From Heptranchias perlo (taxonomy: Eukaryota), in assembly GCF_035084215.1 (NCBI RefSeq), contig NC_090370.1:26846001-26910000 (forward strand): DNA of 64,000 bases, in the 5' to 3' direction. Both the position numbers and the translations under genes were made by a program. How positions within the stretch are numbered: the stretch's first letter is position 1; every line of letters starts with the position of its first letter. Below are positions 1 to 58,619 of the stretch, in pieces. The notes under the pieces are model-generated. The model saw only the letters and a program-made list of their open reading frames with translations, made no database searches and was not told the DNA's origin.

Positions 1-3000
1 TCGGTGAGAGATATCTCGAATGGACCATCGGTCTCACTGGTATACGGTGAGAGATATCTCGAATGGACCATCGGTCTCACTGGTATTCGGTGAGAGATAT
101 CTCGAATGGACCATCGGTCTCACTGGTATTCGGTGAGAGATATCTCGAATGGACCATCGGTCTCACTGGTACTCGGTGAGAGATATCTCGAATGGACCAT
201 CGGTCTCACTGGTATTCGGTGAGAGATATCTCGAATGGACCATCGGTCTCACTGTATTCGGTGAGAGATATCTCGAATGGACCATCGGTCTCACTTGTAC
301 TCGGAGAGAGATATCTCGAATGGACCGTCGGTCTCACTGGTATTCCGAGAGAGATATCTCGAATGGACCATCGGTCTCAATGGTACTCGGAGAGAGATAT
401 CTCGAATGGACCATCGGTCTCACTGGTATTCGGTGAGAGATATCTCGAATGGACCATCGGTCTCACATGTACTCGGTGAGAGACATCTCGAATCGAACAT
501 CGGTCTCACTGGTATTCGGAGAGAGATATCTCGAATGGACCATCGGTTTCTCTGGTACTCGGAGAGAGATATCTCGAATGGACCATCGGTCTCACTGGTA
601 CTCGGAGAGAGATATCTCGAATGGTCCATCGGTCTCACTGGTACTCGGTGAGAGATATCTCGAATGGACCATCGGTCTCACTGGTATTCGGTGAGAGATA
701 TCTCGAATGGACCATCGGTCTCACTGGTATACGGTGAGAGATATCTCGAATGGACCATCGGTCTCACTGGTATTCGGTGAGAGATATCTCGAATGGACCA
801 TCGGTCTCACTGGTATTCGGTGAGAGATATCTCGAATGGACCATCGGTCTCACTGGTACTCGGTGAGAGATATCTCGAATGGACCATCGGTCTCACTGGT
901 ATTCGGTGAGAGATATCTCGAATGGACCATCGGTCTCACTGTATTCGGTGAGAGATATCTCGAATGGACCATCGGTCTCACTTGTACTCGGAGAGAGATA
1001 TCTCGAATGGACCGTCGGTCTCACTGGTATTCCGAGAGAGATATCTCGAATGGACCATCGGTCTCAATGGTACTCGGAGAGAGATATCTCGAATGGACCA
1101 TCGGTCTCACTGGTATTCGGTTAGAGATATCTCGAATGGACCATCGGTCTCACATGTACTCGGTGAGAGACATCTCGAATCGAACATCGGTCTCACTGGT
1201 ATTCGGAGAGAGATATCTCGAATGGACCATCGGTTTCTCTGGTACTCGGAGAGAGATATCTCGAATGGACCATCGGTCTCACTGGTACTCGGAGAGAGAT
1301 ATCTCGAATGGTCCATCGGTCTCACTGGTACTCGGTGAGAGATATCTCGAATGGACCATCGGTCTCACTGGTATTCGATGAGAGATATCTCGAATGGACC
1401 ATCGGTCTCACTGGTCCTCGGTGAGAGATATCTCGAATGGATCATCGGTCTCACTGGTACTCGGTGAGAGATATCTCGAATGGACCATCGGTCTCACTGG
1501 TACTCGGTGAGAGATATCTCGAATGGACCATCGGTCTCACTAGTACTCGGTGAGAGATATCTCGAATGGACCATCGGTCTCACTGGTATTCGATGAGAGA
1601 TATCTGGAATGGACCATCGGTCTCACTGGTACTCGTTGAGAGATATCTCGAATGGACCATCGGTCTCACTGGTACTCGTTGAGAGATATCTCGAATGGAC
1701 CATCGGTCTCACTGGCACTCGGTGAGAGATATCTCGAATGGACCATCGGTCTCTCTGGTACTCGGTGAGAGATATCTCAAATGGACCATCGGTCTCACTG
1801 GTACTCGGTGAGAGATATCTCGAATGGACCATCGGTCTCACTGGTATTCGGAGAGAAATATCTCGAATGCACCATCGGTCTCACTGGTAATCGGAGAGAG
1901 GTATCTCGCATGGATCATCGGTCTCAGTGGTACTCGGAGAGAGATATCTCGAATGGACCATCGGTCTCACTGGTACTCGGTGAGAGATATCTCGAATGGA
2001 CCATCGGTCTGACTGGTACTCGGTGAGAGATATCTCGAATGGACCATCGGTCTCACTGGCACTCGGTGAGAGATATCTCGAATGGACCATCGGTCTCACT
2101 GGTACTCGGTGAGAGATATCTCGAATGGACCATCGGTCTCATTGGTATTCGGTGAGAGATATCTCGAATGGACCATCGGTCTCACTGGTATTCGGTGAGA
2201 GATATCTCGAATGGACCATCGGTCTCACTGGTATTCGGTGAGAGATATCTCGAATGGACCATCGGTCTCACTGGTACTCGGTGAGAGATATCTCGAATGG
2301 ACCTTCGGTCTCACATGTACTCGGTGAGAGACATCTCGAATCGAACATCGGTCTCACTGGTAATCGGTGAGAGATATCTCGAATGGACCATCGGTGTCAC
2401 TGGTACTCGGTGAGATATCTCGAATGGACCATCGGTCTCACTGGTATTCGGGGAGAGATATCTCGAATGGACCATCGGTCTCACATGTACTCGGTGAGAG
2501 ACATCTCGAATGGACCATCGGTCTCACTGGTACTCGGTGAGATATCTCGAACGGACCATCGGTCTCTCTGGTACTCGGTGAGAGATATCTCAAATGGACC
2601 ATCGGTCTCACTGGTACTCGGTGAGAGATATCTCGAATGGACCATCGGTCTCACTGGTATTCGGAGAGAAATATCTCGAATGGACCATCGGTCTCACTGG
2701 TAATCGGAGAGAGGTATCTCGCATGGATCATCGGTCTCAGTGGTACTCGGAGAGAGATATCTCGAATGGACCATCGGTCTCACTGGTACTCGGTGAGAGA
2801 TATCTCGAATGGACCATCGGTCTGACTGGTACTCGGTGAGAGATATCTCGAATGGACCATCGGTCTCACTGGCACTCGGTGAGAGATATCTCGAATGGAC
2901 CATCGGTCTCACTGGTACTCGGTGAGAGATATCTCGAATGGACCATCGGTCTCATTGGTATTCGGTGAGAGATATCTCGAATGGACCATCGGTCTCACTG

Positions 3001-6000
3001 GTATTCGGTGAGAGATATCTCGAATGGACCATCGGTCTCACTGGTATTCGGTGAGAGATATCTCGAATGGACCATCGGTCTCACTGGTACTCGGTGAGAG
3101 ATATCTCGAATGGACCTTCGGTCTCACATGTACTCGGTGAGAGACATCTCGAATCGAACATCGGTCTCACTGGTAATCGGTGAGAGATATCTCGAATGGA
3201 CCATCGGTCTCACATGTACTCGGTGAGAGACATCTCGAATGGACCATCGGTCTCACTGGTACTCGGTGAGATATCTCGAACGGACCATCGGTCTCTCTGG
3301 TACTCGGTGAGATATCTCGAATGGACCATCGGTCTCACTGGTATTCGGTGAGAGATATCTCGAATGGACCATCGGTCTCACTGGTATTCGGTGAGAGATA
3401 ACTCGAACGGACCATCGGTCTCACTGGTATTCGGTGAGAGATATCTCGAATGGACCATCGGTCTCACTGGTACTCGGAGAGAGATATCTCGAATGGACCA
3501 TCAGTCTCACAGGGATTCGGTGAGAGATATCTCGAATGGACCATCGGTCTCACTGGTATTCGGTGAGAGATATCTCGAACGGACCATCGGTCTCTCTAGT
3601 ATTCGGTGAGAGATATCTCGAATGGACCATCGGTCTCACTGGTACTCGGAGAGAGATATCTCGAATGGACCATCAGTCTCACAGGGATTCGGTGAGAGAT
3701 ATCTCGAATGGACCATCGGTCTCACTGGTATTCGGTGAGAGATATCTCGAACGGACCATCGGTCTCTCTAGTATTCGGTGAGAGATATCTCGAATGGACC
3801 ATCGGTCTCACTGGTATTCGGTGAGAGATATCTCGAATGGACAATCGGTCTCTCTGGTACTCGGAGAGAGATATCTCGAATGGACCATCGGTCTCACTGG
3901 TACTCGGAGAGAGATATCTCGAATGGACCATCGGTCTCATCAGTATTCGGAGAGAGATATCTCGAACGGTCCATCGGTCTCACGGGTATTCGGTGAGAGA
4001 TATCTCGAATGGACCATCGGTCTCTCTCGTATTCGGTGAGAGATATCTCGAATGGACCATCGGTCTCTCTAGTATTCGGTGAGAGATATCTCGAATGGAC
4101 CATCGGTCTCACTGGTACTCGGTGAGAGATATCTCGAATGGACCATCGGTCTCACTGGTATTCGGAGAGAAATATCTCGAATGGACCATCGGTCTCACTG
4201 GTAATCGGAGAGAGGTATCTCGAATGGACCGTCGGTCTCACTGGTATTCGGTGAGAGATATCTCGAGTGGACCATCGGTCTCACTGGTACTCGGTGAGAG
4301 ATATCTCGAGTGGACCATCTTTCTCACTGGTACTCGGTGAGAGATATCTCGAATGGACCATCGGTCTCACTGGTACTCGGTGAGAGATATCTCGAATGGA
4401 CCATCGGTCTCTCTAGTATTCGGTGAGAGATATCTCAAATGGACCTTCGGTCTCACTGGTATTCGGTGAGAGATATCTCGAATGGACCATCGGTCTCACT
4501 GGTATACGGTGAGAGATATCTCGAATGGACCATCGGTCTCACTGGTATTCGGTGAGAGATAACTCGAATGGACCATCGGTCTCACTGGTACTCGGTGAGA
4601 GATATCTCGAATGGACCATCGGTCTCACTGGTATTCGGTGAGAGATATCTCGAATGGACCATCGGTCTCACTGGTATTCGGTGAGAGATATCTCGAATGG
4701 ACCATCGGTCTCACTGGTATACGGTGAGAGATATCTCGAATGGACCATCGGTCTCACTGGTATTCGGTGAGAGATATCTCGAATGGACCATCGGTCTCAC
4801 TGGTATTCGGTGAGAGATATCTCGAATGGACCATCGGTCTCACTGGTACTCGGTGAGAGATATCTCGAATGGACCATCGGTCTCACTGGTATTCGGAGAG
4901 AAATATCTCGAATGGACCATCGGTCTCACTGGTAATCGGAGAGAGGTATCTCGCATGGATCATCGGTCTCAGTGGTACTCGGAGAGAGATATCTCGAATG
5001 GACCATCGGTCTCACTGGTACTCGGTGAGAGATATCTCGAATGGACCATCGGTCTGACTGGTACTCGGTGAGAGATATCTCGAATGGACCATCGGTCTCA
5101 CTGGCACTCGGTGAGAGATATCTCGAATGGACCATCGGTCTCACTGGTACTCGGTGAGAGATATCTCGAATGGACCATCGGTCTCATTGGTATTCGGTGA
5201 GAGATATCTCGAATGGACCATCGGTCTCACTGGTATTCGGTGAGAGATATCTCGAATGGACCATCGGTCTCACTGGTATTCGGTGAGAGATATCTCGAAT
5301 GGACCATCGGTCTCACTGGTACTCGGTGAGAGATATCTCGAATGGACCTTCGGTCTCACATGTACTCGGTGAGAGACATCTCGAATCGAACATCGGTCTC
5401 ACTGGTAATCGGTGAGAGATATCTCGAATGGACCATCGGTCTCACTGGTACTCGGTGAGATATCTCGAATGGACCATCGGTCTCACTGGTATTCGGGGAG
5501 AGATATCTCGAATGGACCATCGGTCTCACATGTACTCGGTGAGAGACATCTCGAATGGACCATCGGTCTCACTGGTACTCGGTGAGATATCTCGAACGGA
5601 CCATCGGTCTCTCTGGTACTCGGTGAGATATCTCGAATGGACCATCGGTCTCACTGGTATTCGGTGAGAGATATCTCGAATGGACCATCGGTCTCACTGG
5701 TATTCGGTGAGAGATAACTCGAACGGACCATCGGTCTCACTGGTATTCGGTGAGAGATATCTCGAATGGACCATCGGTCTCACTGGTATTCGGTGAGAGA
5801 TAACTCGAATGGACCATCGGTCTCACTGGTACTCGGTGAGAGATATCTCGAATGGACCATCGGTCTCACTGGTATTCGGTGAGAGATATCTCGAATGGAC
5901 CATCGGTCTCACTGGTATTCGGTGAGAGATATCTCGAATGGACCATCGGTCTCACTGGTATACGGTGAGAGATATCTCGAATGGACCATCGGTCTCACTG

Positions 6001-9000
6001 GTATTCGGTGAGAGATATCTCGAATGGACCATCGGTCTCACTGGTATTCGGTGAGAGATATCTCGAATGGACCATCGGTCTCACTGGTACTCGGTGAGAG
6101 ATATCTCGAATGGACCATCGGTCTCACTGGTATTCGGAGAGAAATATCTCGAATGGACCATCGGTCTCACTGGTAATCGGAGAGAGGTATCTCGCATGGA
6201 TCATCGGTCTCAGTGGTACTCGGAGAGAGATATCTCGAATGGACCATCGGTCTCACTGGTACTCGGTGAGAGATATCTCGAATGGACCATCGGTCTGACT
6301 GGTACTCGGTGAGAGATATCTCGAATGGACCATCGGTCTCACTGGCACTCGGTGAGAGATATCTCGAATGGACCATCGGTCTCACTGGTACTCGGTGAGA
6401 GATATCTCGAATGGACCATCGGTCTCATTGGTATTCGGTGAGAGATATCTCGAATGGACCATCGGTCTCACTGGTATTCGGTGAGAGATATCTCGAATGG
6501 ACCATCGGTCTCACTGGTATTCGGTGAGAGATATCTCGAATGGACCATCGGTCTCACTGGTACTCGGTGAGAGATATCTCGAATGGACCTTCGGTCTCAC
6601 ATGTACTCGGTGAGAGACATCTCGAATCGAACATCGGTCTCACTGGTATTCGGTGAGAGATATCTCGAATGGACCATCGGTCTCACTGGTATTCGGTGAG
6701 AGATAACTCGAACGGACCATCGGTCTCACTGGTATTCGGTGAGAGATATCTCGAATGGACCATCGGTCTCACTGGTACTCGGAGAGAGATATCTCGAATG
6801 GACCATCAGTCTCACAGGGATTCGGTGAGAGATATCTCGAATGGACCATCGGTCTCACTGGTATTCGGTGAGAGATATCTCGAACGGACCATCGGTCTCT
6901 CTAGTATTCGGTGAGAGATATCTCGAATGGACCATCGGTCTCACTGGTACTCGGAGAGAGATATCTCGAATGGACCATCAGTCTCACAGGGATTCGGTGA
7001 GAGATATCTCGAATGGACCATCGGTCTCACTGGTATTCGGTGAGAGATATCTCGAACGGACCATCGGTCTCTCTAGTATTCGGTGAGAGATATCTCGAAT
7101 GGACCATCGGTCTCACTGGTATTCGGTGAGAGATATCTCGAATGGACCATCGGTCTCTCTGGTACTCGGAGAGAGATATCTCGAATGGACCATCGGTCTC
7201 ACTGGTACTCGGAGAGAGATATCTCGAATGGACCATCGGTCTCATCAGTATTCGGAGAGAGATATCTCGAACGGTCCATCGGTCTCACGGGTATTCGGTG
7301 AGAGATATCTCGAATGGACCATCGGTCTCTCTCGTATTCGGTGAGAGATATCTCGAATGGACCATCGGTCTCTCTAGTATTCGGTGAGAGATATCTCGAA
7401 TGGACCATCGGTCTCACTGGTACTCGGTGAGAGATATCTCGAATGGACCATCGGTCTCACTGGTATTCGGAGAGAAATATCTCGAATGGACCATCGGTCT
7501 CACTGGTAATCGGAGAGAGGTATCTCGAATGGACCGTCGGTCTCACTGGTATTCGGTGAGAGATATCTCGAGTGGACCATCGGTCTCACTGGTACTCGGT
7601 GAGAGATATCTCGAGTGGACCATCTTTCTCACTGGTACTCGGTGAGAGATATCTCGAATGGACCATCGGTCTCACTGGTACTCGGTGAGAGATATCTCGA
7701 ATGGACCATCGGTCTCTCTAGTATTCGGTGAGAGATATCTCAAATGGACCATCGGTCTCACTGGTATTCGGTGAGAGATATCTCGAATGGACCATCGGTC
7801 TCACTGGTACTCGGTGAGAGATATCTCGAATGGACCATCAGTCTCACTGGTACTCGGTGAGAGATATCTCGAATGGACCATCGGTCTCACTGGTATTCGA
7901 TGAGAGATATCTGGAATGGACCATCGGTCTCACTGGTACTCGTTGAGAGATATCTCGAATGGACCATCGGTCTCACTGGTACTCGGTGAGAGATATCTCG
8001 AATGGACCATCGGTCTCACTGGTACTCGGAGAGAGATATCTCGAATGGACCATCGGTCTCACTGGTACTCGGAGAGAGATATCTCGAATGGACCGTCGGT
8101 CTCACTGGTATTCGGTGAGAGATATCTCGAATGGACCATCGGTCTCACTGTATTCGGTGAGAGATATCTAGAATGGACCGTCGGTCTCACTGGTATTCGG
8201 TGAGAGATATCTCGAATCGACCATCTGTCTCACATGTACTCGGAGAGAGATATCTCGAATGGACCATCGGTCTCACTGGTACTCGTTGAGAGATATCTCG
8301 AATGGACCATCGGTCTCACTGGTACTCGGTGAGAGATATCTCGAATGGACCATCGGTCTCACTGGTATTCGGTGAGAGATATCTCGAATGGACCTTCGGT
8401 CTCACTGGTATTCGGTGAGAGATATCTCGAATGGACCATCGGTCTCACTGGTATACGGTGAGAGATATCTCGAATGGACCATCGGTCTCACTGGTATTCG
8501 GTGAGAGATAACTCGAATGGACCATCGGTCTCACTGGTACTCGGTGAGAGATATCTCGAATGGACCATCGGTCTCACTGGTATTCGGTGAGAGATATCTC
8601 GAATGGACCATCGGTCTCACTGGTATTCGGTGAGAGATATCTCGAATGGACCATCGGTCTCACTGGTATACGGTGAGAGATATCTCGAATGGACCATCGG
8701 TCTCACTGGTATTCGGTGAGAGATATCTCGAATGGACCATCGGTCTCACTGGTATTCGGTGAGAGATATCTCGAATGGACCATCGGTCTCACTGGTACTC
8801 GGTGAGAGATATCTCGAATGGACCATCGGTCTCACTGGTATTCGGTGAGAGATATCTCGAATGGACCATCGGTCTCACTGTATTCGGTGATAGATATCTC
8901 GAATGGACGATCGGTCTCACTTTTACTCGGAGAGAGATATCTCCAATGGACCGTCGGTCTCACTGGTATTCCGAGAGAGATATCTCGAATGGACCATCGG

Positions 9001-12000
9001 TCTCAATGGTACTCGGAGAGAGATATCTCGAATGGACCATCGGTCTCACTGGTATTCGGTTAGAGATATCTCGAATGGACCATCGGTCTCACATGTACTC
9101 GGTGAGAGACATCTCGAATCGAACATCGGTCTCACTGGTATTCGGAGAGAGATATCTCGAATGGACCATCGGTTTCTCTGGTACTCGGAGAGAGATATCT
9201 CGAATGGACCATCGGTCTCACTGGTACTCGGAGAGAGATATCTCGAATGGACCATCGGTCTCACTGGTACTCGGTGAGAGATATCTCGAATGGACCATCG
9301 GTCTCACTGGTATTCGATGAGAGATATCTCGAATGGACCATCGGTCTCACTGGTCCTCGGTGAGAGATATCTCGAATGGATCATCAGTCTCACTGGTACT
9401 CGGTGAGAGATATCTCGAATGGACCATCGGTCTCACTGGTACTCGGTGAGAGATATCTCGAATGGACCATCGGTCTCACTAGTACTCGGTGAGAGATATC
9501 TCGAATGGACCATCGGTCTCACTGGTATTCGGTGAGAGATATCTCGAATGGACCATCGGTCTCACTGGTATTCGGTGAGAGATATCTCGAATGGACCATC
9601 GGTCTCACTGGTACTCGGAGAGAGATATCTCGAATGGACCATCGGTCTCACTGGTACTCGGAGAGAGATATCTCGAATGGACCGTCGGTCTCACTGGTAT
9701 TCGGTGAGAGATATCTCGAATGGACCATCGGTCTCACTGTATTCGGTGAGAGATATCTCGAATGGGCCGTCGGTCTCACTGGTATTCGGTGAGAGATATC
9801 TCGAATCGACCATCGGTCTCACATGTACTCGGAGAGAGATATCTCGAAAGGACCATCGGTCTCACTGGTACTCGGTGAGAGATATCTCGAATGGACCATC
9901 GGTCTCACTGGTACTCGGTGAGAGATGTCTCGAATGGACCATCGGTCTCACTGGTATTCGGTGAGAGATATCTCGAATGGACCATCGGTCTCACTGGTAT
10001 TCGGTGAGAGATATCTCGAATGGACCATCGGTCTCACTGGTATACGGTGAGAGATATCTCGAATGGACCATCGGTCTCACTTGTATTCGGTGAGAGATAA
10101 CTCGAATGGACCATCGGTCTCACTGGTATTCGGAGAGAGATATCTCGAATGGACCATCGGTCTCACTGGTACTCGGAGAGAGATATCTCGAATGGACCAT
10201 CGGTCTCACTGGTATTCGGTGAGTGATATCTCAAATGGACCATCGGTCTCACATGTACTCGGTGAGAGACATCTCGAATCGAACATCGGTCTCACTGGTA
10301 TTCGGAGAGATATATCTCGAATGGACCATCTGTCTCACTGGTACTCGGAGTGAGATATCTCGAATGGACCATCGGTCTCACTGGTACTCGGTGAGAGATA
10401 TCTCGAATGGACCATCGGTCTCACTGGTATTCGATGAGAGATATCTCGAATGGACCATCGGTCTCACTGGTATTCGGTGAGAGATATCTCGAATGGACCA
10501 TCGGTCTCACTGGTATTCGGTGAGAGATATCTCGAATGGACCATCGGTCTCACTGGTATTCGGTGAGAGATATCTCGAATGGACCATCGGTCTCACTGGT
10601 ATTCGGTGAGAGATATCTCGAATGGACCATCGGTCTCACTGGTACTCGGTGAGATATATCTCGAATGGACCATCGGTCTCACATGTACTCGGTGAGAGAC
10701 ATCTCGAATCGAACATCGGTCTCACTGGTATTCGATGAGAGATATCTCGAATGGACCATCGGTCTCACTGGTACTCGGTGAGAGATATCTCGAATGGACC
10801 ATCGGTCTCACTGGTACTCGGAGAGAGATATCTCGAATGGACCATCGGTCTCACTGGTATTCGGGGAGAGATATCTCGAATGGACCATCGGTCTCACATG
10901 TACTCGGTGAGAGACATCTCGAATGGACCATCGGTCTCACTGGTACTCGGTGAGATATCTCGAACGTACCATCGGTCTCACATGAACTCGGTGAGAGATA
11001 TCTCGAATGGACCATCGGTCTCACTGGTACTCGGTGAGATATCTCGAACGGACCATCGGTCTCTCTGGTATTCGGTGAGAGATATCTCGAATGGACCATC
11101 GGTCTCGCTGGTATTCGGTGAGAGATATCTCGAATGGACCATCGGTCTCATTTGTATTCGGTGAGAGATATCTCGAATGGACCAGCGATCTCACTGGTAT
11201 TCGGTGAGAGATATCTCGAATGGACCATCGGTCTCACTGGTACTCGGAGAGAGATATCTGGAATGGACCATCGGTCTCACTAGTACTCGGAGAGAGATAT
11301 CTCGAATGGACCATCGGTCTCACTGGTACTCGGAGAGAGATATCTCGAATGGACCATCGGTCTCACTGGTATTCTGTGAGAGATATCTCGAATGGACCAT
11401 CGGTCTCACTGGTATTCGGTGAGAGATATCTCGAATGGACCATCAGTCTCACAGGGATTCGGTGAGAGATATCTCAAACGGACCATCGGTCTCACTGGTA
11501 TTCGGTGAGAGATATCTCGAATGGACCATCGGTCTCACTGGTACTCGGTGAGAGATATCTCGAATGGACCATCGGTCTCACTGGTACTCGGTGAGAGAGA
11601 TATCTCGAATGGACCATCAGTCTCACAGGGATTCGGTGAGAGATATCTCGAACGGACCATCGGTCTCTCTAGTATTCGGTGAGAGATATCTCGAATGGAC
11701 CATCGGTCTCACTGGTATTCGGTGAGAGATATCTCGAATGGACCATCGGTCTCATCAGTATTCGGAGAGAGATATCTCGAACGGTCCATCGGTCTCTCTA
11801 GTATTCGATGAGAGATATCTCGAATGGACCATCGGTCTCACTGGTACTCGGTGAGAGATATCTCGAATGAACCAGCGGTCTCACTGGTACTCGGTGAGAG
11901 ATATCTCGAATGAACCAGCGGTCTCACTGGTACTCGGTGAGAGATATCTCGAATGAACCAGCGGTCTCACTGGTATTTGGTGAGAGATATCTCGAATGGA

Positions 12001-12120
12001 CCATCGGTCTCACTGGTATTCGGTGTGAGATACATCGAACGTTCCATCGGTCTCACTGGTATTCAGTGTGTGATATCTCGAACGGTCCATCGGTCTCACA
12101 GGTATTCAGTGAGAGATGTC
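1..12120. repeat. 43-bp tandem satellite (consensus TCGGTGAGAGATATCTCGAATGGACCATCGGTCTCACTGGTA[T/C]), ~280 units, extends beyond window start
   Basis: Direct 43-nt periodicity; variant units recur in blocks (offsets 687 and 3305 nt); last units (11850-12120) degenerate. Confidence 0.99.
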
Positions 12121-12490
12121 TCTCATGTTTTGGAATCCTCTCCCCTTCACCCCGATTCATGGTATAAATTCGCCTTTGCTCTTGAACGACAGCAGTATAC
12201 TTGGACCGTTTTACCTCAAGGTTCTCACAACAACCCCGCTATTTTCCCTGCTCACATGGATGGAAATTTGACAGGGCTGTGAATCCCCCGGCTGTCATCC
12301 AATATGTGGATGAAACACGAATACATACATTTTCGAGGCACGGAAAGAGCACGTGCGAATGGTGAGTGAGGTTTTGAATCGATTGGAGTCCTCTGGAGTC
12401 CCTTTACTAAGACCACCAACTCGGTGAAAGAGACCCTTTAGTCCCCCCGAAACCTGCTGGTCTTCCACTGATGGAGCTGTCCACGACCGA
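12103..12490 (+). mobile_element. Decayed retroviral/LTR-element reverse transcriptase fragment, possibly followed by an RNase H start
   Basis: Translation YSVRDVSH..PLHPDSWYKFAFALERQQYTWTVLPQGSHNNPAIF (motifs A-B, LPQG at 12211), then after frameshifts AVIQYVDE (YxDD-like, 12303-12314), KEHVRMVSEVLNRLESSG, and weak xTDGA near 12468. Confidence 0.85.
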
Positions 12491-12769
12491 GAAATTGTGT
12501 GATGTGTAATTTCCACTGTACATCGTCCTATGATGTCCCCAGTAAACCTTGAGTTAACCAAGGGATCCCAAACTGGGGAATCTGAGGTTTCTATGAAAGA
12601 ATTAAGTGATAACAATGAAATAAAAACTGACCTCAATAAGAGAAAGACACAGATGAATTATACTAAAGTGAGCAATAAACGGAAACTAAAAGATTACAAA
12701 TTAAACTCATCTACTAATCAATGTTTAATATCAAAGGGGAGTCCGTTCGCTCTTGAACTAGATAAATAA

Positions 12770-17842: not shown

Positions 17843-18745
17843 CACAGGTGGTGTGTCAGCAGGTGGGATGATCGAGTGAATCCCTTCCCACACACAGAGC
17901 AGGGAAATGGCTTCTACCCAGTGTGAGTGCGATGATGTCTCAGCAGATCCCCCATTCTTTTAAAGCTCTTTTCACATTCAGAACATTTAAAGGGTCTCTT
18001 AGCAGTGTGAGCAAGTTGGTGTTCAATGAGTCTGGATGACCGAGTGAATCCCTTCTCACACACGTAACATGTGAACGGCCTCTCCCCAGTGTGAGTACAT
18101 TGGTGTGTTTGAAGATGCCTTTTACTTTTGAAGCTCTTCTCACAGTCAGAACATTTTAAAAGTTTCTTATCAGTGTGAACAAGTTGATGCTCAATGAGGT
18201 AGGATGAACGAGTGAATCTCTTCCCACACACGGAGCAGGTGAACGGCCTCTCCCCAGTGTGAACTTGCTGGTGTGTCAGCAGGTGGGATGGCTGAGTGAA
18301 TCCCTTTCCACACGCGGAGCTGGGGAGCGGCCTCTCTCCAGTGTGTCTGCGTCTATGAGTTTCCAGCTGTGACGGTTTCTCCGGGTTGCGGGTGTCCTTG
18401 TGTCTCTCCAGGTTGGACGGTCAGTTGAAGCCTCGTCCACACAAAGAACACGTGTACGGTTTCTCCCCACTGTGAATGGTGTGATGTTTTTATCAGGCTG
18501 TGTAACTGGTTAAAGCTCTTTCCACAGTCAGTGCACTGGAACACTTTCACTCGTGTGTGTGTCTCGGTGCTTTTCCAGTCTCAGTGATGTTTGAAATCTT
18601 TTCCCACAGACAGAACAGACAAACATTTCTCCTTCTATATTCAAAGGCCGATGATCTTCAGGTGCTGGTGAATCGAGTGACTGTCAAATCTTGACGTGAT
18701 GTTTGCTTTGAGTTTCTCGTCTGCAAATCCTCCGCTTCTAATACC
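17843..18745 (-). pseudogene. C2H2 zinc-finger gene, terminal exon, disabled
   Basis: CxxC..HxxxH fingers with HTGERPF linkers (ORF 17914-18231); premature TAG in linker (TG*KP) at 17914; frameshifts and stop upstream; acceptor TTTTACAG at ~18746. Confidence 0.85.
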
Positions 18746-19199
18746 CTGTAAAAGGAGATAACAAGAGTCCTCACTGTGAATACAGGATAGAAATTCAGAA
18801 CAGGCAATTCTAGTTTCTATGGAATATTCTTCCCGCTCATTTCCCCAGATTGTAAATCCCCGTCCCACACACTCACTCCCCTTCCTCTGCTGTAATCCAA
18901 ACCCATCGCACCATCAACAACATTTTTCCTTATATTTAAGTTTTTTCTCTCCCTGAAAGTCCTGAATCTAACTGGGATCAGTTCTACACTCACTGGTTCC
19001 CCTCCCTCTCCTCCCCTGAAGGTCCTGACTCTGGCTGGGTTCAGTTCTACCCTCATTGGTACCCCTCCTTCTCCTCCCCTGAAGATGCTGACACTGGCTG
19101 GGTATATATGCTCTCCCCCTCATTTCGACACTACTGCCCACCCTATTGCTGCCGGTAAGCTGTCCATCTGTGGCATCTCCCAATTTTGGTGATGGACTC

Positions 19200-20385
19200 T
19201 CTCTGACCAGTCACCATTACTCCTTCATTTAAAGACGGTCCCTGATCTGTCACTATTTTCCTTCATTTGCAGATTCTCCCTGACCCGTCACCATTTTTCG
19301 TTCAATTACAGACACTCCCTGACTAGTCACTATGTCTCCTTCATTTGCAGATTCTCCCTGACCTGTCATTATTCCTCCTTCATTTAAAGACTCTCCCTGA
19401 CCGGTCACCATTTCTCCTTCATTTAAAGACTCTCCCTGACCCGTCACCATTTCTCGTTCATTTAAAGACTCTACCTCACCAGTCACTATTTCTCCTTCAT
19501 TTAAAGACTCTCCCTGACCCGTCACTATTTCTCCTTAATTTAAAGACTGTACCTGACCTGTCACTATTTCTCCTTCATTTAAAGACTCTCCCTGACCCGT
19601 CACCATTTCTCCTTCAGTTACAGACGCTCCATAACCCGTCACAATTTCTCCTTCATTTAAAGACTGTACCTGATCTGTCACTATTTCTCCTTCATTTAAA
19701 GACTCTCCCTGACCCGTCACTATTTCTCCTTCATTTAAAGACTCTGCCTGACCCGTCACCATTTCTCCTTCATTTAAAGACTCTCCCTGACCCGTCACCA
19801 TTTCTCCTTCATTTAAAGACTCTCCCTGACCCGTCACTATTTCTCCTTCATTTAAAGACGCTCCCTGACGTGTCACTTTTTCTCCTTCATTTGCAGACAC
19901 TCCATGACCCGTCACTATTTCTCCTTCATTTACAGACACTCCATGACCCGTCACAATTTCTCCTTCAGTTACAGACTCCACCTGACCAGTCACTATTTCT
20001 CCTTCAGTTACAGAAACGACCTGACCTGTCACCATTTCTCCTTCATTTAAAGACTCTACCTGACCAGTCACGATTTCTCCATCAGTTAGAGAAACGACCT
20101 GACCTGTCACAATTTCTCCTTCATTTAAAGACTCTCCCTGACCCGTCACCATTTCTCCTTCAGTTACAGACACTCCCTGACCCGTCACCATTTCTCCTTC
20201 TTTTAAAGACTCTACCTGACCCGTCGCTACTTCTCCTTCATTTACAGTCACTACCTGACCTGTCACCATTTCTCCTTCATTGAAAGACACTGTCTGACCA
20301 GTCACCATTTCTTCTTCATTTACAGTCACTACCTGACCCATCAACATTTTTCCTTCATTTACAGACACTCCCTAACCAGTTACTT
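19200..20385. repeat. 39-bp minisatellite (CCCTGACCCGTCACTATTTCTCCTTCATTTAAAGACTCT), ~30 units
   Basis: Direct periodicity; 13-aa repeat ORFs on both strands. Confidence 0.95.
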
Positions 20386-21868: not shown

Positions 21869-24450
<2,582 letters not shown>

Positions 24451-29899: not shown

Positions 29900-31620
29900 A
29901 TGTCCAAAAACTTCATAGTGTCAGAATGAAATGTACAGTTTCAATTCATTCACTGCAGACTGAGGTACACATTAGATACCAGTCCAAAATTCTCATACAG
30001 TATAAGACTGAAAGAGAGAGTATCAAACACATTAGTGCAGACTGAGCAACACATCACATACCAGTCCATAAATCTCAGTGTCAGGTTGAAAGATACAGTA
30101 TCAATTCCATAAGTGCAGATTGAGCTCCACATTATAGACCAGTCCAAAATTCGCATAAAGTATCGTACTGGAAGATACAGTATCAATCCCATTAGTGCAG
30201 ACTGAGGTGTACATTGGATACCAGTCCAAAAGTCACATTCAGTGTCAAATTGAAAGATACAGTATCAATCCCATTAGTGCAGACTGAGGTATACATTAGA
30301 TACCAGTCCAAAAGTCACATTCAGTGTCAAATTGAAAGATACAGTATCAATTCCATTAGTGTAGACTGAACTACACCTTACAAACCAGTCTAAATATATT
30401 ACACAGTATCAGACTGAAAGTTACAGTTTGAATTCCATTCGTACAGACTGAGCTACACATTTTATATCGTCCAAAAATCTGATATATTATCATACTGAAA
30501 CACACAGTATGAATCCTTTTAGTGTAGACTCAGCGACACATAACAAAGCAGTCCAAAAATCCCTCGCTGTGTCTGTCTGAAAGTTAGAGTGTCAATTCCA
30601 TTGGTACAGACAGAACCACACATCACATACCAGTCCAAAAATCTCATACAGTGTCAGCCTGAAACATACAGTGTCAATTCCATTAGTACAGACTGAGCTA
30701 CACCGAACGCACCAATCCAAAAATCTCATACAGTGTCAGACTGAAACATACAGTATCAATTCCATTAGTACAGACTGAGCGACACCGAACACACCAATCC
30801 AAAAATCTCATACAGTGTCAGACTGAAAGATACAATATCAATTCCATTAGCCCAGACTGAGCTACACAATAAATACCAGTCCAATAATTTCACAGTAAAA
30901 GGTTGAAGTGAACATTATCTTCACAGAGATTAAGATAAAATCACACAACAAAACTCACACATTTTTTTGATTAAAACAAAATCCAAAATCGTATACATAT
31001 TTACACATTAATGCTGGACAAAAGATTTGCATACATTTGTGAATTAAAGACACAGTTTCAAGCACCATACTGCAACCTGAAATAAGAATACAGAACGAAT
31101 CCAGACTTGCACTTTGCCCAGAGACTGAGTTACAGAATGAATCCCACACTGAGATAAAATACCAGAGATCGAGAGACACCGAATGAATCCCACACTCACA
31201 GATAGCACCAGAGATTGACAGATACCGAATGAATCCCACACTCACACACATTCCCAGAGATTGACAGATACCAAATGAATCCCACACTCACACACATTCC
31301 CAGAGATTGACAGAAACAGAATGAATCCCACACTCACAAATAGCAGCAGAGATTGACAGATACCGAATGAATATCACACTCACACACAGTACCAGAGACT
31401 AACAGATACAGAATGAATCCCACACTCACACACAGTATCAGAGACTGACAGATACAGAATGAATCCCACACTCACACACAGTACCAGAGACTAACAGATA
31501 CAGAATGAATCCCACACTCACAGACTGTACTGGAGACTGACGGATACAGAATGAATATCACGCTCACATACAGTATCAGAGACTGACAGACAGAGAATTA
31601 ATCTCACACTCTTATACAAT
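29900..31620. repeat. Compound minisatellite: ~81-bp units (29900-30890) then 46-bp units (31130-31620)
   Basis: CAGTCCAAAAATCTCATACAGTGTCAGACTGAAAGATACAGTATCAATTCCATTAG.. and CAGTACCAGAGACTGACAGATACAGAATGAATCCCACACTCACACA periodicities. Confidence 0.9.
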
Positions 31621-36843: not shown

Positions 36844-37383
<540 letters not shown>

Positions 37384-39646: not shown

Positions 39647-40218
39647 TTACTTCTTTTTGCCTGCTGCTTTCTTCGGTTTGGGCTTGGCGCTCGGTTTTTG
39701 TACCTTCTTCGCCTTCGCCTTCACTGGCTTGGGGGTCTTGGGCTTCTTCACAGCCGCTTTCTTCTTAATTGGTGATTTCGCCCCCTTCTTTGTGGTCGAT
39801 TTCTTGACCGCTGGTTTCTTGGCCGTTAATTTCCTGGCCGCTGGTTTCTTTCCGGGAGATTTCTTGGTTCCTTGTTTCTTCACCTTCTTTCCCACTTTTT
39901 CCTGGGCTTCCTTCTTAGCGACTCTGAAGGAGCCCGAGGCGCCCGTGCCCTTGATCTGCACCAGGGAGCCTTTTTCCACATTTCTCTTGATACTTAATTT
40001 GATCTGGGTCCGGTGCTTCTCCACATCCAGGCCTTTGGTAGCCAGAATCTTCTTTATCGCGGCCAGGGATATCCCCTTGCGATCCTTGCAATCTTGAGGA
40101 TCTGTTCGCCCAATTTGGGACCGGCTGTCTTGGGTCGGTGAACCGCCTTCTTCTTCTTCGGAGCATTGGTTTGAGCGGCAGCGGGAGGTGCGGTTTCGGC
40201 GGCTGCAGTATCTGTCAT
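39647..40218 (-). pseudogene. H1: Histone H1 with a frameshift near 40090
   Basis: [23 protein letters not shown] in one frame; [29 protein letters not shown] and the Lys-rich tail in another; ATG-to-stop length 572 nt is not a multiple of 3. Confidence 0.9.
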
Positions 40219-40294
40219 GTCCGGGACTCTGAAGAAAATCTCTCTGACAGTCAGAGCTGGGTCAGAAATGAAACGAGAGGCGGCGGCACAGAGC

Positions 40295-45649: not shown

Positions 45650-48600
45650 TATGAGATGTAAAGATAGAGTATCAATTCTATTAGTGCAGACTGAGATATA
45701 CATTACATACCAGTCCAAAAATCTCATACAATATTAGATTGAAAGACGCAGTATCGATTACAATAGTACAGACAGAGCTGCACATTATATATCAATTCAA
45801 AAATCACCATATCAGTTTGAAATATATATTATCATTCACAATATTACACAGAAATATAGATTTAATAGTGGTCAAGTTTATCAATATTTACCAATTAAAT
45901 AATGATAAATACTATTTAAACATGAAGCTATTAAAGCTACAGTATTGTATGTCATAAGATAATCTGAGAGAACAATTATAGACAGACACAGAATGAATCT
46001 CACACTCATGTATGGTACCAGAGTTGACAGATACAGAATGAGTCCCACACTCTCATAATGTACCAGATACTGGCAGATAAAGTATGAATCCCACACTCAC
46101 ACACAGTACCAGAGAATGTATCGACAGAATGAATCTCACAATCATAGAGTACCAGATTACTGATTCAATCCCACACTAACATACATGATGAGAAACTGCA
46201 TATATAAAGTGAATTCAACATCCACATACAGTACTGGAAACTGACAGACACAGAATGAATCCCACACAGTATCACGGAGTGAGAGATACAAAATGAATCT
46301 CACAGTCACCTACATTACTGCTGGCTGAGTTACAAATTACGTACCAGTCCAAAAATCTCAGTGTCAGATTGAAAGATACAGTATCAATTCCATTAGTGCA
46401 GATTGAGCTACATATTAAAACCACTACAAAAAATATCTGATGCAGATTGAGACTGAAATATACAGTGTTCCATTCATGCAGACTGAGCTCCACATTATAT
46501 ACAAGTTCAAAAATGTCACCATATCAGTTTGGAAGATAAACTAAATCACAGTTGTGTTCACATTGATGCAGATTTAATAGTAGCCCAAAAAGTGCACTCA
46601 TTCTCTGATTATAACCTACAGCATCACATGTTAAAGTGTATGATTATCTACCAGTTAAATACTGGGAAAAATTATTTATACATTTAGGTATGAAAGATAC
46701 AGTTTTGAACGCCATACTTTAAACGGAGATACAAATTAGATACAGATAAAGAATGAATCTCATACTCAGATCCAGTGCCAGAGACTGACAAATAGAATGA
46801 ATCTCACACTCACACAATGTACCAGTGATTGATAGACACAGAACAAATCCCACACTCTGATACAGTAGCACAGACTGACAGATACAGAATTTATATCACT
46901 CACATACAGCATCAGAGACTGACAGATATGGAATGAATCCCAAATTCACACACAGTGTCAGAGACTGACAGGAACAGAATAAATCACAAAGTACCACAGT
47001 CAGACAGATACAGAATGAATCTCACTCACATACAGTACCAGGGACTGACATATATAGAATGAATCCCACACTCACACACAGTACCACAGTCAGACAGATA
47101 CAGAATGAATCTCACAGTCACATTATTGCAGACTGAGTTACACATAAATCAGTCCAAAAATCTTATTGTGTCATATTGGAAGATAATGTTTCAATTCGAT
47201 TAGTGCAGACTGAGCCAAACAATACATAGCAGTCGAACAATTTCATACCATATCAGACTCAAAGATACAACATCAATTCCATTAGCATGCACTGAGCTAC
47301 ATGTTACACACCAGTCCAAAAATCTCATACAGTATCAGACTGATAGATTAGTGCAGGGTGAGCTACATTTTACATTCCAGTCCAAAAATCTCATACAATG
47401 TCAGACTGAGATACAGAATTAATTCCATTATTATAGACTGAGCTACACATTATATACCAGTCCAATAATTTCACCGTGAACGGATTGAAAGGTACATTAT
47501 CATTCACACTAGAGTTCAGAGATTAAGATGTAATACTACTCTGAAACTCACACACATTGTTTGATTTAAGAAAATCCAAAAGTGTATCCATATTAACAAA
47601 TTAAATACTCGACGAAGAACTGTATATACTTTGAAGTGGAAAAGATACAGTTTCAAATAAGATACTGTAAACTGAAATAAGAATCCAGACTGAATGCAGA
47701 CTTGCACATTATCTCAGAGACTGAATTACTGAATGAATCCCTCACTGAGATAAAGTAGCAGAGAATGCCAGATACTGAATGTATCCCCCCCACACACAGA
47801 CAGTGCCGGAGACTGACAGATCCAGAATAAACCCCACACACATGTACAGTACCAGAGAATGACAGGCACAGAATAAATCCCAAATTCAGATACCGTACCA
47901 GAGACTGACAGATACAGAATAAATCCCACACTCGCATACCATATCAGAGACTGACAAATGCAGAATGAACCCCAATCTCTGGTACAGTATCAGAGACTGA
48001 CAGATACAGAATAAACCTCACACTCATGTACAGTACCAGAGACAGACAGATACAGAATTAATCCCACATGCACACACAGTATCAGAGACTGACAGATACA
48101 GAATAAACCCCACACTTGCATACTGAACCCAAGATTGACAGATCTAGAGTAAAACCCACACTCATATACTGGACTAGAGACTGACAGATACAGAATAAAC
48201 CCCACACTCATATACAATACCAGAGACAGACAGATACAGAATAAACCCCACATTCATGCACAGTAACAGAGACTGACAATTATAGAGTTAATTCCACACT
48301 TGTTAACAGTACCAGAGACAGACAGATACAAAATAAACCCCACTGTCATGCACAGTACCAGGGACTGAGAGAATACAGAATAAACCCCACTGTCATATAC
48401 AGTACCAGGGACTGACAGAATACAGAATAAACCCCACTCTCATACACAGTACCAGGGACTGACAGAATACAGAATAAACCCCACTCTCAGATACAGTACC
48501 AGGGACTGACAGAATACAGAATAAACCCCACTGTCATACACAGTACCAGGGACTGACAGAATACAGAATAAAGCCCACTCTCATACACAGTACCAGAGAC

Positions 48601-48650
48601 TGACAGAATACAGAATAAAGCCCACTCTCATACACAGTACCAGAGACTGA
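45650..48650. repeat. Compound ~81-bp and 46/47-bp minisatellite arrays
   Basis: Same unit families as 29900-31620; most regular at 47770-48650. Confidence 0.9.
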
Positions 48651-49412
48651 CCTCTACGACTGACCTCTACTGGATACAATCGAGAACTGTGAACGAGCGG
48701 AACAAATTCACATTCTCTGTCGTGGTTCCAGAAACAGGACAATGTGCAATGTGAGGAAAATTTCTGTCTGTAACTTCTACTCTCGTATTTTTGCACATTT
48801 TGATAGTGGAAAATGAGGACAATTTATTCATTAAAGTTTTGTTTCACTCATTCAATAGTTGTGAATTTGCCCCATTATATTTCACTGTACATTGCGCAGT
48901 ATTTCTCTCTGATTTCTCAGGTCGATTTACATTACTCCTCTACCCCTTTCAGACTCTTTTTTCCAAGCAGTATGCGGCCAACTTGTTCCCCTGGCAAAAT
49001 GCACCAGCTCACACCTTTCTATATTGAAATTCAGTGGTCATTTGCACAGCCGTTCTGCAAACTTATTTTTTGCAGTCTTCCTCAGTATTGACTATAACCC
49101 CTAAATCAATTATAAGAATGTAACACAGCATTACAACTAATGTTTGGTCTAACAAAATGTATTTGCAGCTCGTCTCCATTCCCAGTTTTTCTAAATCCCA
49201 CTCGTGCAATATAATGTGAAGAATTAGTTTCTGTTCTGTCCCTCTCTCATCTGCAAACTTCACTGTCCCGGGGTTTGGGGACATCTACTGGCCGGAAGCA
49301 GAACTGCAACAATTCGGAACAAATTGCTGAAACCGGACAATGTGCAGTGTGAGCGTGTTTGTGATTGGTGGCAGGTACTAAATCTGATTGGATATCTGAA
49401 GAAATCAATCAG

Positions 49413-51054: not shown

Positions 51055-51561
<507 letters not shown>

Positions 51562-54865: not shown

Positions 54866-57800
54866 GAATTCAGAAACACCAAGACTGGAACTGAATTTGA
54901 CGATGTTCAGAGTGATCGTGTTTCCAAAACACAAAAGTGTCTAATTTATATGAAAAATACTTTTAAAATTCATTTATTTCCCCCATAAAGTTGAATTTAA
55001 CTCTGTTCCTTTGTATTATTATTTGCCCTGATCTGTACGGTGGATACGGGACTCAATTGCTCGGATTCAGTGAAATTAATTGATTTTCTGAAGGTTTTCC
55101 GTCTGCTGATTCCCGTTCCTTATTTAAATTATGTCTGATTAACCTTTCTGATCGAGAGAAGGGTCATAGTCCTGAACCTTCAACCCGAGCTTCCCTTCTC
55201 CACAGGTGCTGCCGGACCTGCTGAGTCTTTCCAACATTTTCGGTTTTAATTTTTTCTGTATTTTGTCCCTTTCACTTTTGACGGTCGCCGTTGAACCTTC
55301 CAGATTTGCGCTCAGTTTTTATTTGTGCTTCAGTTCGGTTTATTTGAATTAATATAAATCGTGTCCTGAGAAATCAGACAGAAATATTGTGCAATGCAGA
55401 GTGAAATACAATGGGGCAACTTTCGAATGAGCAAAACAAAAACTTTATTATGAATCAATTGTTTTATTTTTCACTGACAAAACATGAAAAAATACGAGAG
55501 TAGAAGTTACAGAGAGAAACTATTTCCTCACATTGCACATTGTCCTGAATCTGTAACAAAGACAGATCATGTGAATTTATTCCACTTTGTTACAGTTCTC
55601 ACTTATGGCCAGTAGGTGTCAGATTGTATGTGAGTGTGAGAGTAATTCTCTGTCTGTCTGTCAGTTTGTGGTACTGTATGTGAGTGTGATATTCATTCTG
55701 TATCCGTCAGTCTCCAGTACAGTCTGTGAGTGTGGGATTCATTCTGTATCTGTCAGTCTCTGGTATTTTATCTCAGTGTGGGATCCATTCTGTAACTCAG
55801 TCTCTGGGCAAAGTGCAAGTCTGGATTCGTTCTGTATTCTTATTTCAGGCGACAGTATGGTGCTTGAAACTGCATCTTTAATTCACTAATGTATGCAAAT
55901 CTTTTGTGTAGTATTAATTTGTAAATATGGATACACTTTTGGATTTTGTTTTAATCAAACAACGTGTGTGAGTTTTGTTGTATGATTGTATCTTAATCTC
56001 TGTGAAGATAATGTTCACTTCAACCTTTTACTGTGAAATTATTGGACTGGTATTTATGGTGTAGCTCAGTCAGTACTAATGGAATTGATATTGTATCTTT
56101 CAGTCTGGCACTGGATGAGATATTTGGACAAGTGTGTAAGGTGTAGCTCAGTCTGTACTAATGGAATTGATATTCTATCTTTCAGTCTGACATGGTGTGA
56201 GATTTTTGGACTGGTGTGTAAGGTGTAGCTCAGTCTGTACTGATGGAATTGACACTCTTTCTTTCTGTCTGACACTGTATGAGATTTTTGGACTGGTGTG
56301 TAAGGTGCAGCTCAGTCTGTACTGATGGAATTGACACTCTTTCTTTCAGTCTGACATGGTGTGAGATTTTTGGACTGGTGTGTAATGTGTGGTTCAGTCT
56401 GTACTAATGGAATTAACACTCTTTCTTTCTGACACTGTATGAGATATTTGGACTGGTGTGTAAGGTGTAGCTCAGTCTGTGCTAATGGAATTGACACTCT
56501 TTCTTTCTGTCTGACACTGTATGAGATTTTTGGACTGGTGTGTAATGTGTGGTTCAGTCTGTACTAATGGAATTAACACTCTTTCTTTCTGACACTGTAT
56601 GAGATATTTGGACTGGTGTGTAAGGTGTAGCTCAGTCTGTGCTAATGGAATTGACACTCTTTCTTTCTGTCTGACACTGTATGAGATTTTTGGACTGGTG
56701 TGTAATGTGTGGTTCAGTCTGTACTAATGGAATTGACATTCCAACATTCAGTCAAACACTGCAAGAGATTTTTGGACTCGTTTGTCATGTGTAGTTTAGT
56801 CTACATTAATAGGATTTATACTGTATGTTTCAGTATGATAATGTATTAGATTTTTGGATGGTATATAATGTGTAGCTCAGTCTGCACGAATGGAATTCAT
56901 ACTGTACCTTTCAATCTGATACAAACCAGCCTAAATATATTACACAGTAAGGTGTCGTTCAGTCTGCACTAATGGAATTGATACTGTATCTTTCAATTTG
57001 TCACTGAATGTGACTTTTGGACTGGTATCTAATGTTTACCTCAGTCTGCACTAATGGGATTGATACTGTATCTTCCAGTCTGATACTGTGTGAGATTTCT
57101 ATACTGGTATGTAACGTGTAGGTCAGTCTGTACTAATCACATCGATAACAAATCTTTCAGTCTGATACTGTACCTGATTTTTGGACAGGTATCTAATGTG
57201 AACCTGTCTGCAGTAAAGGAATTGATACTGTGCCTTTCAGTTTGACACAATGTGATTTTTGGGCAGGTAACTAATGTGTACCTCAGTCTGCACTAATGGG
57301 ATTGATACTGTATCTTCCAGTACGATACTTTATGCGAATTTTGGACTGGTATATAATGTGTAGCTCAATCTGCACTAATGGGGTTGATACTGTATCTTTC
57401 AACCTGGCACTGAGATTTTTGGACTGGTATGTGATGTGTTGCTCAGTCTGCACTAATGGGGTTGATACTGTGTCTTTCAGTCTTATACTGTATGAGACTC
57501 TTGGACTGGTATCTAATGTGTACCTCAGTCTGCAGTGAATGAATTGAAACTGTACATTTCATTCTGACACGATGAAGTTTTTGGACATATATGTGAGTCA
57601 AATATGGGTAACATCTGAACTGGTATCTAATTTGCATCTCAGTGTACAATAGTGTCATGAATACTGCATCTTTAAACTCATAATGTGTGTGAGTTGTGGG
57701 CTGGTATTTAATTTGAATCTTGGAGTACACTATTGTGATTCATTCTGTACCTATCAATCAGTACCATGTGTCAGTTCTATCTGGTATTTAATTTGTAGCT

Positions 57801-58619
57801 AAGGCTGAACTAATGTGAGATTGACACAGTACCTTTCAATCTGATACTGGGTGTGATTTTGGACTGGGAATTATTGATCTGCCGGTCAGCAGTACTGAGT
57901 CGTTGTGAAATGGAAATTACATCTGTCTCTCCTGCTCTGTTTGACTGTTGGATTGGGATCAGTGTGGGACTGACTACTTCCACAGTCTGAGAGTGTGGGA
58001 CTGATCACCTGTCTGTGTCTCTGTGCTCTGTGAGTGATAATGTACTTACTGTGTGTGAGAAGGAGCTGGCTGCACTGACTGCTCCTTGTGGCTCGGGTGG
58101 AGTAAACATCACACTGATTCTGGGTCCTTCAAGGATTTGACTGTCGGAAGAAAAAGATTCTCTTGTAATTCAAGAACAGGTGAAGTAGAAAATACAAAAG
58201 TGATCAATTGAATCTCTCTGTTAATAATCATTGTAATAACCACAAATGAAAACCAGTGATACAAACAGTGTCAGTGTCTGACTCCACTGCAGTTCTGCAG
58301 CTCTCAGCTTCTGCACACCAGGTGTGTTGGGCTGTTTTACAACAATTTAGTGACATCCAGACACAACCCAACCCCTGCACTGATCCATGAATGGGACTAC
58401 CCGATGGGGCGGGGACCTTTGAACATATCAGATTTCTGTTTCCCACTCCCTTGGGACAAACCATTGAACCGAAACAAAACAGACGCTGTTTAAAATGTGT
58501 CCTTCAATCTTCTCACTTGATTTCTGCCATAGATGCTCTTTGTATAACTCCCCGCATCCTTACTGTCCGGCTCTGTTTACTGTTCAATAACAAACACTAA
58601 AGGTTAATGGGCAGGTTTA

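Follow-up and report, generated by a model that had tools for sequence, protein, structure and literature searches.

The window analysed here, a 64,000-nucleotide stretch of the Heptranchias perlo genome (GCF_035084215.1, contig NC_090370.1, forward-strand positions 26,846,001 to 26,910,000), opens inside an array of 43-bp tandem repeats that is flanked on both sides by remnants of a retrovirus-like reverse transcriptase (RT) gene and preceded by the reading frame of a GPR139-like receptor. A first interpretation made from the letters of the window, referred to below as the sequence-only reading, had proposed that this satellite was seeded by motif A, the RT segment bearing the catalytic aspartate (Asp), and both halves of the RT gene together with a related copy holding a single unit bear that proposal out.

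The array and the reverse transcriptase around it

A tandem-repeat scan of the window recovers the 43-bp period over positions 1-12122, with 282.4 copies and 93% matches. The array had been thought to end at 12314; its actual end lies near 12129, and its start, located by fetching 100 kb to the left, lies 34.4 kb left of the window. It is continuous over 46,562 bp (G000:C49:26811568-26858129), comprises approximately 1,086 units (46.6 kb) and lies on a 28.3-Mb contig, with about 1.5 Mb between it and the contig end. Unit length is exactly 43 bp in 1,002 of the 1,085 units measured, giving the long head-to-tail run of a single monomer that characterizes satellites, and a six-frame check found no stop-free stretch longer than 185 codons, as befits non-coding DNA.

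At the right edge of the array, the codons TAT TCA GTG AGA GAT (12103-12117) continue in frame into PLHPDSWYKFAF..QYTWTVLPQGSHNNPAIF, TTT TGG lies out of frame at 12128-12133, and QYVDE follows in a different frame from 12300, all as first described. In the RT frame the unit reads HRSHWYSVRDISNG, in agreement with the proposed motif-A translation, except that the residues PSVS are the start of the following unit read in the wrong frame and correspond to no RT residue; 43 is not divisible by 3, so the frame shifts from unit to unit. The spacing between Asp (12115) and proline (12142) is indeed the nine codons seen in foamy viruses, but the window copy retains it because two small indels after the Asp cancel out, whereas elsewhere DISNGFWNLP reads in a single frame. 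The 59-residue frame starting at 12103 matches Pfam RVT_1 weakly (E 1.5e-4, below the cut-off), and its best match in PDB is a foamy-virus RT (E 1.2e-6), with the Asp falling on the D of DLANGFWAHP. The upstream half of the RT, which the sequence-only reading had predicted at the far end of the array, was found directly left of it, outside the window, as roughly 360 bases with stops (KSNGSW..NCRQLIKY..PLVASYPEML).

A search with a pattern for the one-unit state yielded a single match, locus L031 (= L031/L137), in which the reading frame runs across the unit. Aligned with the open-frame RT of locus L033 over 90 amino acids, this copy shows zero gaps. Its unit provides ISNG along with the residues that come just ahead, an exact fit to motif A and its lead-in, and is therefore native RT DNA and not an insertion. 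Motif-A DNA unlike the unit in intact relatives had been named as evidence against the sequence-only reading, and this objection is not borne out: L031, a member of the same family, matches the unit at 39 of 43 bases, and the open-frame relatives, which match at just 20-23 of 43 bases (nine of 15 relatives scorable, the other six having no anchor), belong to other families and agree at the protein level as W..V.DISNGFW..P. The monomer is therefore homologous to, and in register with, the element, and short forms lie inside element copies (one copy with a single unit and 89 with 2-99), as expected of a transposable-element-derived satellite. On these alignments, the origin of the array from the RT motif-A DNA of a retrovirus-like pol is established.

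The array on contig C49 contains 194 distinct units, with a mean of about two differences from the commonest one. Exact repeats of up to 1,280 bp recur within it at lags of 0.7-22 kb, forming irregular multi-unit blocks of kilobase size; with many lags and no fixed period, this structure fits repeated block duplication. A fixed higher-order repeat was rejected, since the best lag explains less than 10% of rare units. Ten of the last 20 units at the right edge of the array are unique, against 8% inside it, and a junction variant occurring 679 times here is found in none of 88 other loci, which shows homogenisation within this locus. The array is 11 times longer than the next-longest one. The junction between array and RT (12003-12678) was found with zero differences in contigs of two DNA runs from one sample, which argues against assembly error, although the sample may be the source of the assembly, so that this is not independent support. 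Four DNA runs, all from one sample that may be the source of the assembly, contain the stretch; neither an RNA run nor another organism is listed for it, which has no bearing on expression or range.

Table 1. Features in and beside the window (window coordinates unless a locus is given)
Feature	Position	Strand	Remarks
GPR139-like receptor frame	L024:3014-3937		Open, 308 codons; ends 1.6 kb before the array, outside the window
Window part of the 43-bp tandem array	1..12129	+	282 units, each corresponding to the RT motif-A segment
Last, most diverged unit	12087..12129	+	Carries the motif-A Asp codon at 12115; joins the downstream RT
Downstream RT remnant (motif B region to YxDD region)	12130..12397	+	One stop and one frameshift
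Tail piece common to other copies	12409..12491	+	About 1.4 kb of pol found in other copies is absent here
C2H2 zinc-finger array frame	17914-18420	-	
39-bp minisatellite	19195-20377		30 copies; open in frame on both strands
Frame like a hAT-type transposase remnant	23001-23669	-	Putative likeness
Related 46-bp and 82-bp AT-rich minisatellites	29902-31611, 45981-48651, 55671-63958	both	Run through the histone region
Frames taken to be histone genes near the array (H3-, H4-, H1-, H2A-like)	36844-37383, ~37700, 39647-40261, 51055-51561		Putative identities

A family of related cassettes and its donor class

Searching the genome with the downstream remnant gave 40 scored places, and the same repeat lies just upstream of the match in all 19 other loci inspected. 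A family-specific motif (at most two mismatches) has 81 matches, 78 of them on nine small contigs; the open-frame relatives, by contrast, are scattered over large contigs. All 80 matches outside the window were fetched. At the same RT position, 78 of them carry 2-99 units (median 5.5), in arrays ending 176-223 bases before the motif; the remaining two lack the array, being broken off downstream of motif A by sequence resembling a long interspersed nuclear element (LINE). Twelve further loci came from a protein search, the one-unit pattern and unit patterns, and all 12 have the upstream RT flank and the receptor. This brings the located unit-bearing loci to 91 including the window, with 1-99 units in the other 90 and less than 0.1 Mb in all copies together. 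These loci account for 148/148, 146/147 and 1,089/1,110 exact matches of three unit patterns, and none of the 91 has an array without RT sequence alongside; the unlinked satellite that the sequence-only reading had named as evidence against itself did not appear. That reading had also held that the array edge preserves the donor locus: the RT halves do flank the array, but the locus is not unique, being one of about 90 paralogous cassettes. Copies occur in both orientations. Near-identical cassettes are shared across contigs C1275/C1499, C1317/C1445/C1370 and C1456/C1562, suggesting haplotype duplicates or very recent large duplications. At L053, L107, L079, L090 and L138-L143, other sequence has been inserted in the array or at its margin, so that one of the RT halves no longer adjoins it; a free satellite might begin in this way.

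The receptor upstream of the array belongs to the rhodopsin family and has 2,491 relatives at E<=1e-40; among the 120 listed, those with names are all from sharks and rays and nearly all called "probable GPR139". A same-strand receptor match above 70% identity is present in 69 of 80 loci (in one through a 20-residue piece only), and 57 of 59 full-length matches lack a stop. The receptors of the cassettes form a clade with 81-87% protein identity and a ratio of nonsynonymous to synonymous divergence (dN/dS) of 0.59, at dS 0.16 (91 pairs from 14 lineages). Our literature searches found no paper on a GPR139-like expansion in sharks and none on a 43-bp shark repeat; in the text available for PMC9040795, a term search gave no mention of sharks.

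Flanks are shared among old lineages over about 10 kb in all, at approximately 80-87% identity, extending for as much as 5.5-7 kb on the upstream side and, on the downstream side, as far as the 3.6 kb that were fetched. The likeness goes past either end of the pol remnant, with indels particular to individual lineages; copies at independent sites amid unrelated flanks, as in mobile arrays of the Ogre type, were not seen. The pol remnant covers RT to tether RNase H, and the 80 loci gave no match to gag, a second RNase H, integrase or env. The downstream tail common to the copies has some likeness to the end of a Tx1-type LINE but gave no match in Pfam.

A tree of upstream flanks was built from 70 of 80 copies (65 distinct), the ten with rearranged flanks, including the 98-99-unit copies, having been dropped. 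It shows about 15 old lineages with long end branches in a star-like arrangement, most of them containing recent near-identical copies. Every lineage but L031 has at least two units, so that the first duplication is probably older than the radiation. Arrays of at least 37 units occur in the window, in its sister L128 (97/95) and in the L088 lineage, as well as in the 98-99-unit copies outside the tree. A dating attempt was discarded: about 0.08 changes per site and lineage, at a rate of 7e-10 per generation (PMC10587355), would amount to some 1e8 generations. Because this is implausibly long, and because small shark chromosomes have higher synonymous rates (PMC10620051), we call the lineages only "old".

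The genome also holds a dispersed family with long open pol frames and dual RNase H, lokiretrovirus-like in character, represented by L032 (G000:C49:15852500-15862400), L033 (G000:C2:53640000-53649900) and many other places. Both named members have gag with a zinc knuckle, dual RNase H and integrase; L033 has a third frame as well, and L032 has a single stop before pol and a Gag with zf-CCHC. The order is protease (PR), RT, tether, RNase H and integrase (IN), and the third frame has a C-terminal hydrophobic stretch. The dual RNase H (tether plus RNase H) is present in L033, and the donor remnant stops in the tether region. The best database matches of these relatives are "NYNRIN-like" pol proteins of frog and coelacanth (55-58%). 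In an RT tree that included no labelled lokiretrovirus references, the donor falls in a 21-row clade (93/89) with L033, L039, L040, L051 and NYNRIN-like pol proteins; the swallow rows and those with a single RNase H fall outside it.

The foamy-virus comparison made in the sequence-only reading stands for the best PDB match of the 59-residue peptide, but not for the class of the donor. Foamy-virus Gag is not known to carry a CCHC knuckle, and the full pol of L033 scores 254 bits against Ty3, 253 against murine leukaemia virus (MLV) and 229 against foamy virus; judged on relatives L033 and L032 and not on the donor itself, neither a pol closest to foamy viruses nor a Gag without CCHC was found. 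The top RT-region matches are named NYNRIN-like, and NYNRIN we take to be the same as CGIN1. Lokiretroviruses are described as having dual RNase H, an RT sister to that of all other retroviruses, an Env resembling the Mononegavirales fusion protein (PF00523), LTRs and an integrase closest to CGIN1, and the available text does not list cartilaginous fish among their hosts (PMC7947760). Points of resemblance in the relatives are the zinc-knuckle gag, the order PR-RT-tether-RNase H-IN and the hydrophobic C-terminal stretch of the third frame. A point of difference is that this frame has no match to PF00523: two pieces of it from L033 gave none in Pfam, and PDB and the protein collection, searched with the first piece, were likewise negative. 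The donor is better described as lokiretrovirus-like than as foamy-like, a grouping that makes no claim of membership.

Origin, growth and competing explanations

We consider it very probable that the array consists of motif-A DNA from a dead, retrovirus-like pol fragment, present in about 1,086 head-to-tail copies between the two halves of its gene, and that it is a likely functionless passenger spread and enlarged by host recombination. In the history we propose, the unit began as native RT sequence, in register between upstream and downstream RT. A single element would have landed on the downstream side of a GPR139-like receptor gene, decayed into a fragment of RT plus tether and undergone one 43-bp tandem duplication that broke the RT frame. 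Segmental duplication of the receptor gene, not retrotransposition, would then have multiplied the cassette, initially in an old radiation and later in a recent round. The shared flanks of about 10 kb, including a mostly intact receptor, argue for one dead fragment, one duplication and host segmental duplication, and we infer one insertion carried along by the duplication of a selected host gene. Unit number ranges from 1 to 99 among the copies and reaches some 1,086 here, with its irregular kilobase-size blocks; slippage and unequal exchange or break-induced replication (the latter two reviewed in PMC8122249) may underlie both the changes in unit number and the blocks, with runaway growth at the C49 locus alone.

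Two candidate triggers of the first duplication were set aside. Compared by eye, the bases before the unit and the unit end share little across junction classes, so that slippage on a pre-existing repeat is not supported. A hairpin appears a weak trigger, the single-unit copy ranking 249 of 1,300 43-mers and its 81-mer having a z of about 0.

Between lineages, the unit has diverged by 0.127 and the flanks by 0.148, with 41-column flank windows ranging from 0.077 to 0.25. As unit divergence lies inside this range, special conservation is not supported, and the array is probably a neutral passenger with no function indicated. In small arrays, CpG sites are among the most variable positions.

That a pre-existing satellite inserted into or converted an RT gene, with the likeness to motif A arising by chance, might be argued from the low base identity to open-frame relatives and from the degradation of the window's last unit after the Asp. 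We regard this as barely credible and count it as refuted by the gap-free alignment of the single-unit copy, in which the unit provides ISNG; the confinement of 148/148 and 146/147 exact matches of two unit patterns to RT-flanked loci stands against it as well. Transposition of a non-autonomous retroelement with a short array, perhaps together with the receptor, to many sites, as in legume Ogre elements, would accommodate the star-like tree with its long-branched old lineages, the uninterrupted receptor frame and the two orientations of the copies. It is nonetheless improbable, given that lineages share flanks past both sides of the pol remnant with lineage-specific indels, that the 80 loci have no match to the remaining retroviral genes, and that the copies are concentrated on few contigs.

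The array might instead have been co-opted, for instance as a CpG-rich element next to the receptor gene with a regulatory or heterochromatin role, or as a substrate for the recombination behind the expansion of the receptor family, and it is true that each old lineage retaining the region keeps at least one unit, that the observed/expected (o/e) CpG ratio exceeds 1 and that the unit shows some hairpin folding. We give co-option little credence: copy number varies a thousandfold, unit divergence is in the flank range, two copies lack the array, and 3-28% of flank 43-mers fold at least as well as the terminal units. GPR139-like genes are, moreover, numerous across sharks and rays and mostly 57-70% identical to the cassette clade, so that the receptor expansion would be independent of the cassette. 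The specific proposal that the RT-derived minisatellite launched or sped the duplication of the receptor clade as a recombination substrate is likewise quite unlikely; if it were true, a broken retroviral active site would have given rise to a satellite and at the same time driven the growth of a host gene family.

Several observations weigh against the history we favour, that of a neutral passenger spread by host duplication. Strict neutrality sits uneasily with a CpG o/e of 1.1-1.2 in arrays against about 0.5 in flanks, with a unit divergence below that of the flanks in 95 of 136 pairs, which are not independent, and with the modest folding of the unit (z -2.1 as monomer, -3.3 as dimer); the first two leave room for exchange between loci or weak constraint. 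Edge divergence is one-sided, only three of the first 20 units at the far edge being unique. The backbone of the flank tree lacks resolution, and L031 is not clearly basal, since it groups with a two-unit clade (93/89) and may represent a contraction. The loci fetched from 150 scored places include none in which a member of the donor's own family has an open frame; one unit pattern has 1,110 exact matches, 21 of which were left unplaced; and some small contigs may be alternative haplotypes, in which case 91 loci would be an overcount.

Comparison with known systems

The birth of satellites is usually inferred from partial likeness once the donor context has been lost. Here about 90 paralogues that go back to one origin still preserve the seed together with the flanks on either side and unit numbers of 1, 2, 3 ... 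99 and 1,086. Within one genome it thus becomes possible to ask what keeps a short tandem duplication a minisatellite or lets it grow into a runaway satellite, be it unit purity, chromosomal position or a length threshold, and the case shows that the RT catalytic motif of a dead element can seed a vertebrate satellite. Our search of the literature, largely without subscription papers, found no published case of a satellite seeded by this motif.

Spread by host recombination is reportedly also the history of the HERV-K K111/K222 proviruses. There, one provirus multiplied in repeat-rich human centromeres and acrocentric arms; the system differs in being human and younger and, in the text available, in having no pol-seeded internal satellite (PMC3759726, PMC4425911). 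Satellites related to open reading frames (ORFs) include chicken HinfI from CR1, PROsat from L1 ORF2 and rye E3900 from gag; their monomers likewise hold retroelement coding sequence, and the accessible portion of the source mentions neither a retrovirus-like RT motif-A monomer nor a graded series of paralogues (PMC9659126). Pea PisTR-A arrays lie in the 3' untranslated region (PMC9659126), whereas the present array breaks the RT frame. In the satellites of Ogre long terminal repeat (LTR) retrotransposons in Lathyrus sativus, many short arrays occur in element copies and few expand to great length, as here, but Ogre copies are dispersed genome-wide and those described here share host flanks (PMC7004042).

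There is also a close resemblance to CficCl-61-40 of Chenopodium, a satellite of about 40 bp derived from the tnp2 transposase domain of the CACTA element Jozin, in which a piece of a conserved transposon coding domain of that length likewise became the monomer and the donor sequence adjoins the array (PMC7320549). That system, as far as its published description is available, involves a plant DNA transposon, a fragment serving as the start monomer and a satellite that makes up a major share of the genome, 0.25-3.8% (PMC7320549), whereas the present one involves an RT catalytic motif in a vertebrate, flanked by both gene halves, occupying less than 0.1 Mb and apparently multiplied through segmental duplication of host DNA. 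That the coding DNA of transposons can yield satellites is thus already known; the novelty lies in the RT catalytic motif acting as seed and in the preservation of the whole series from one to 1,086 units.

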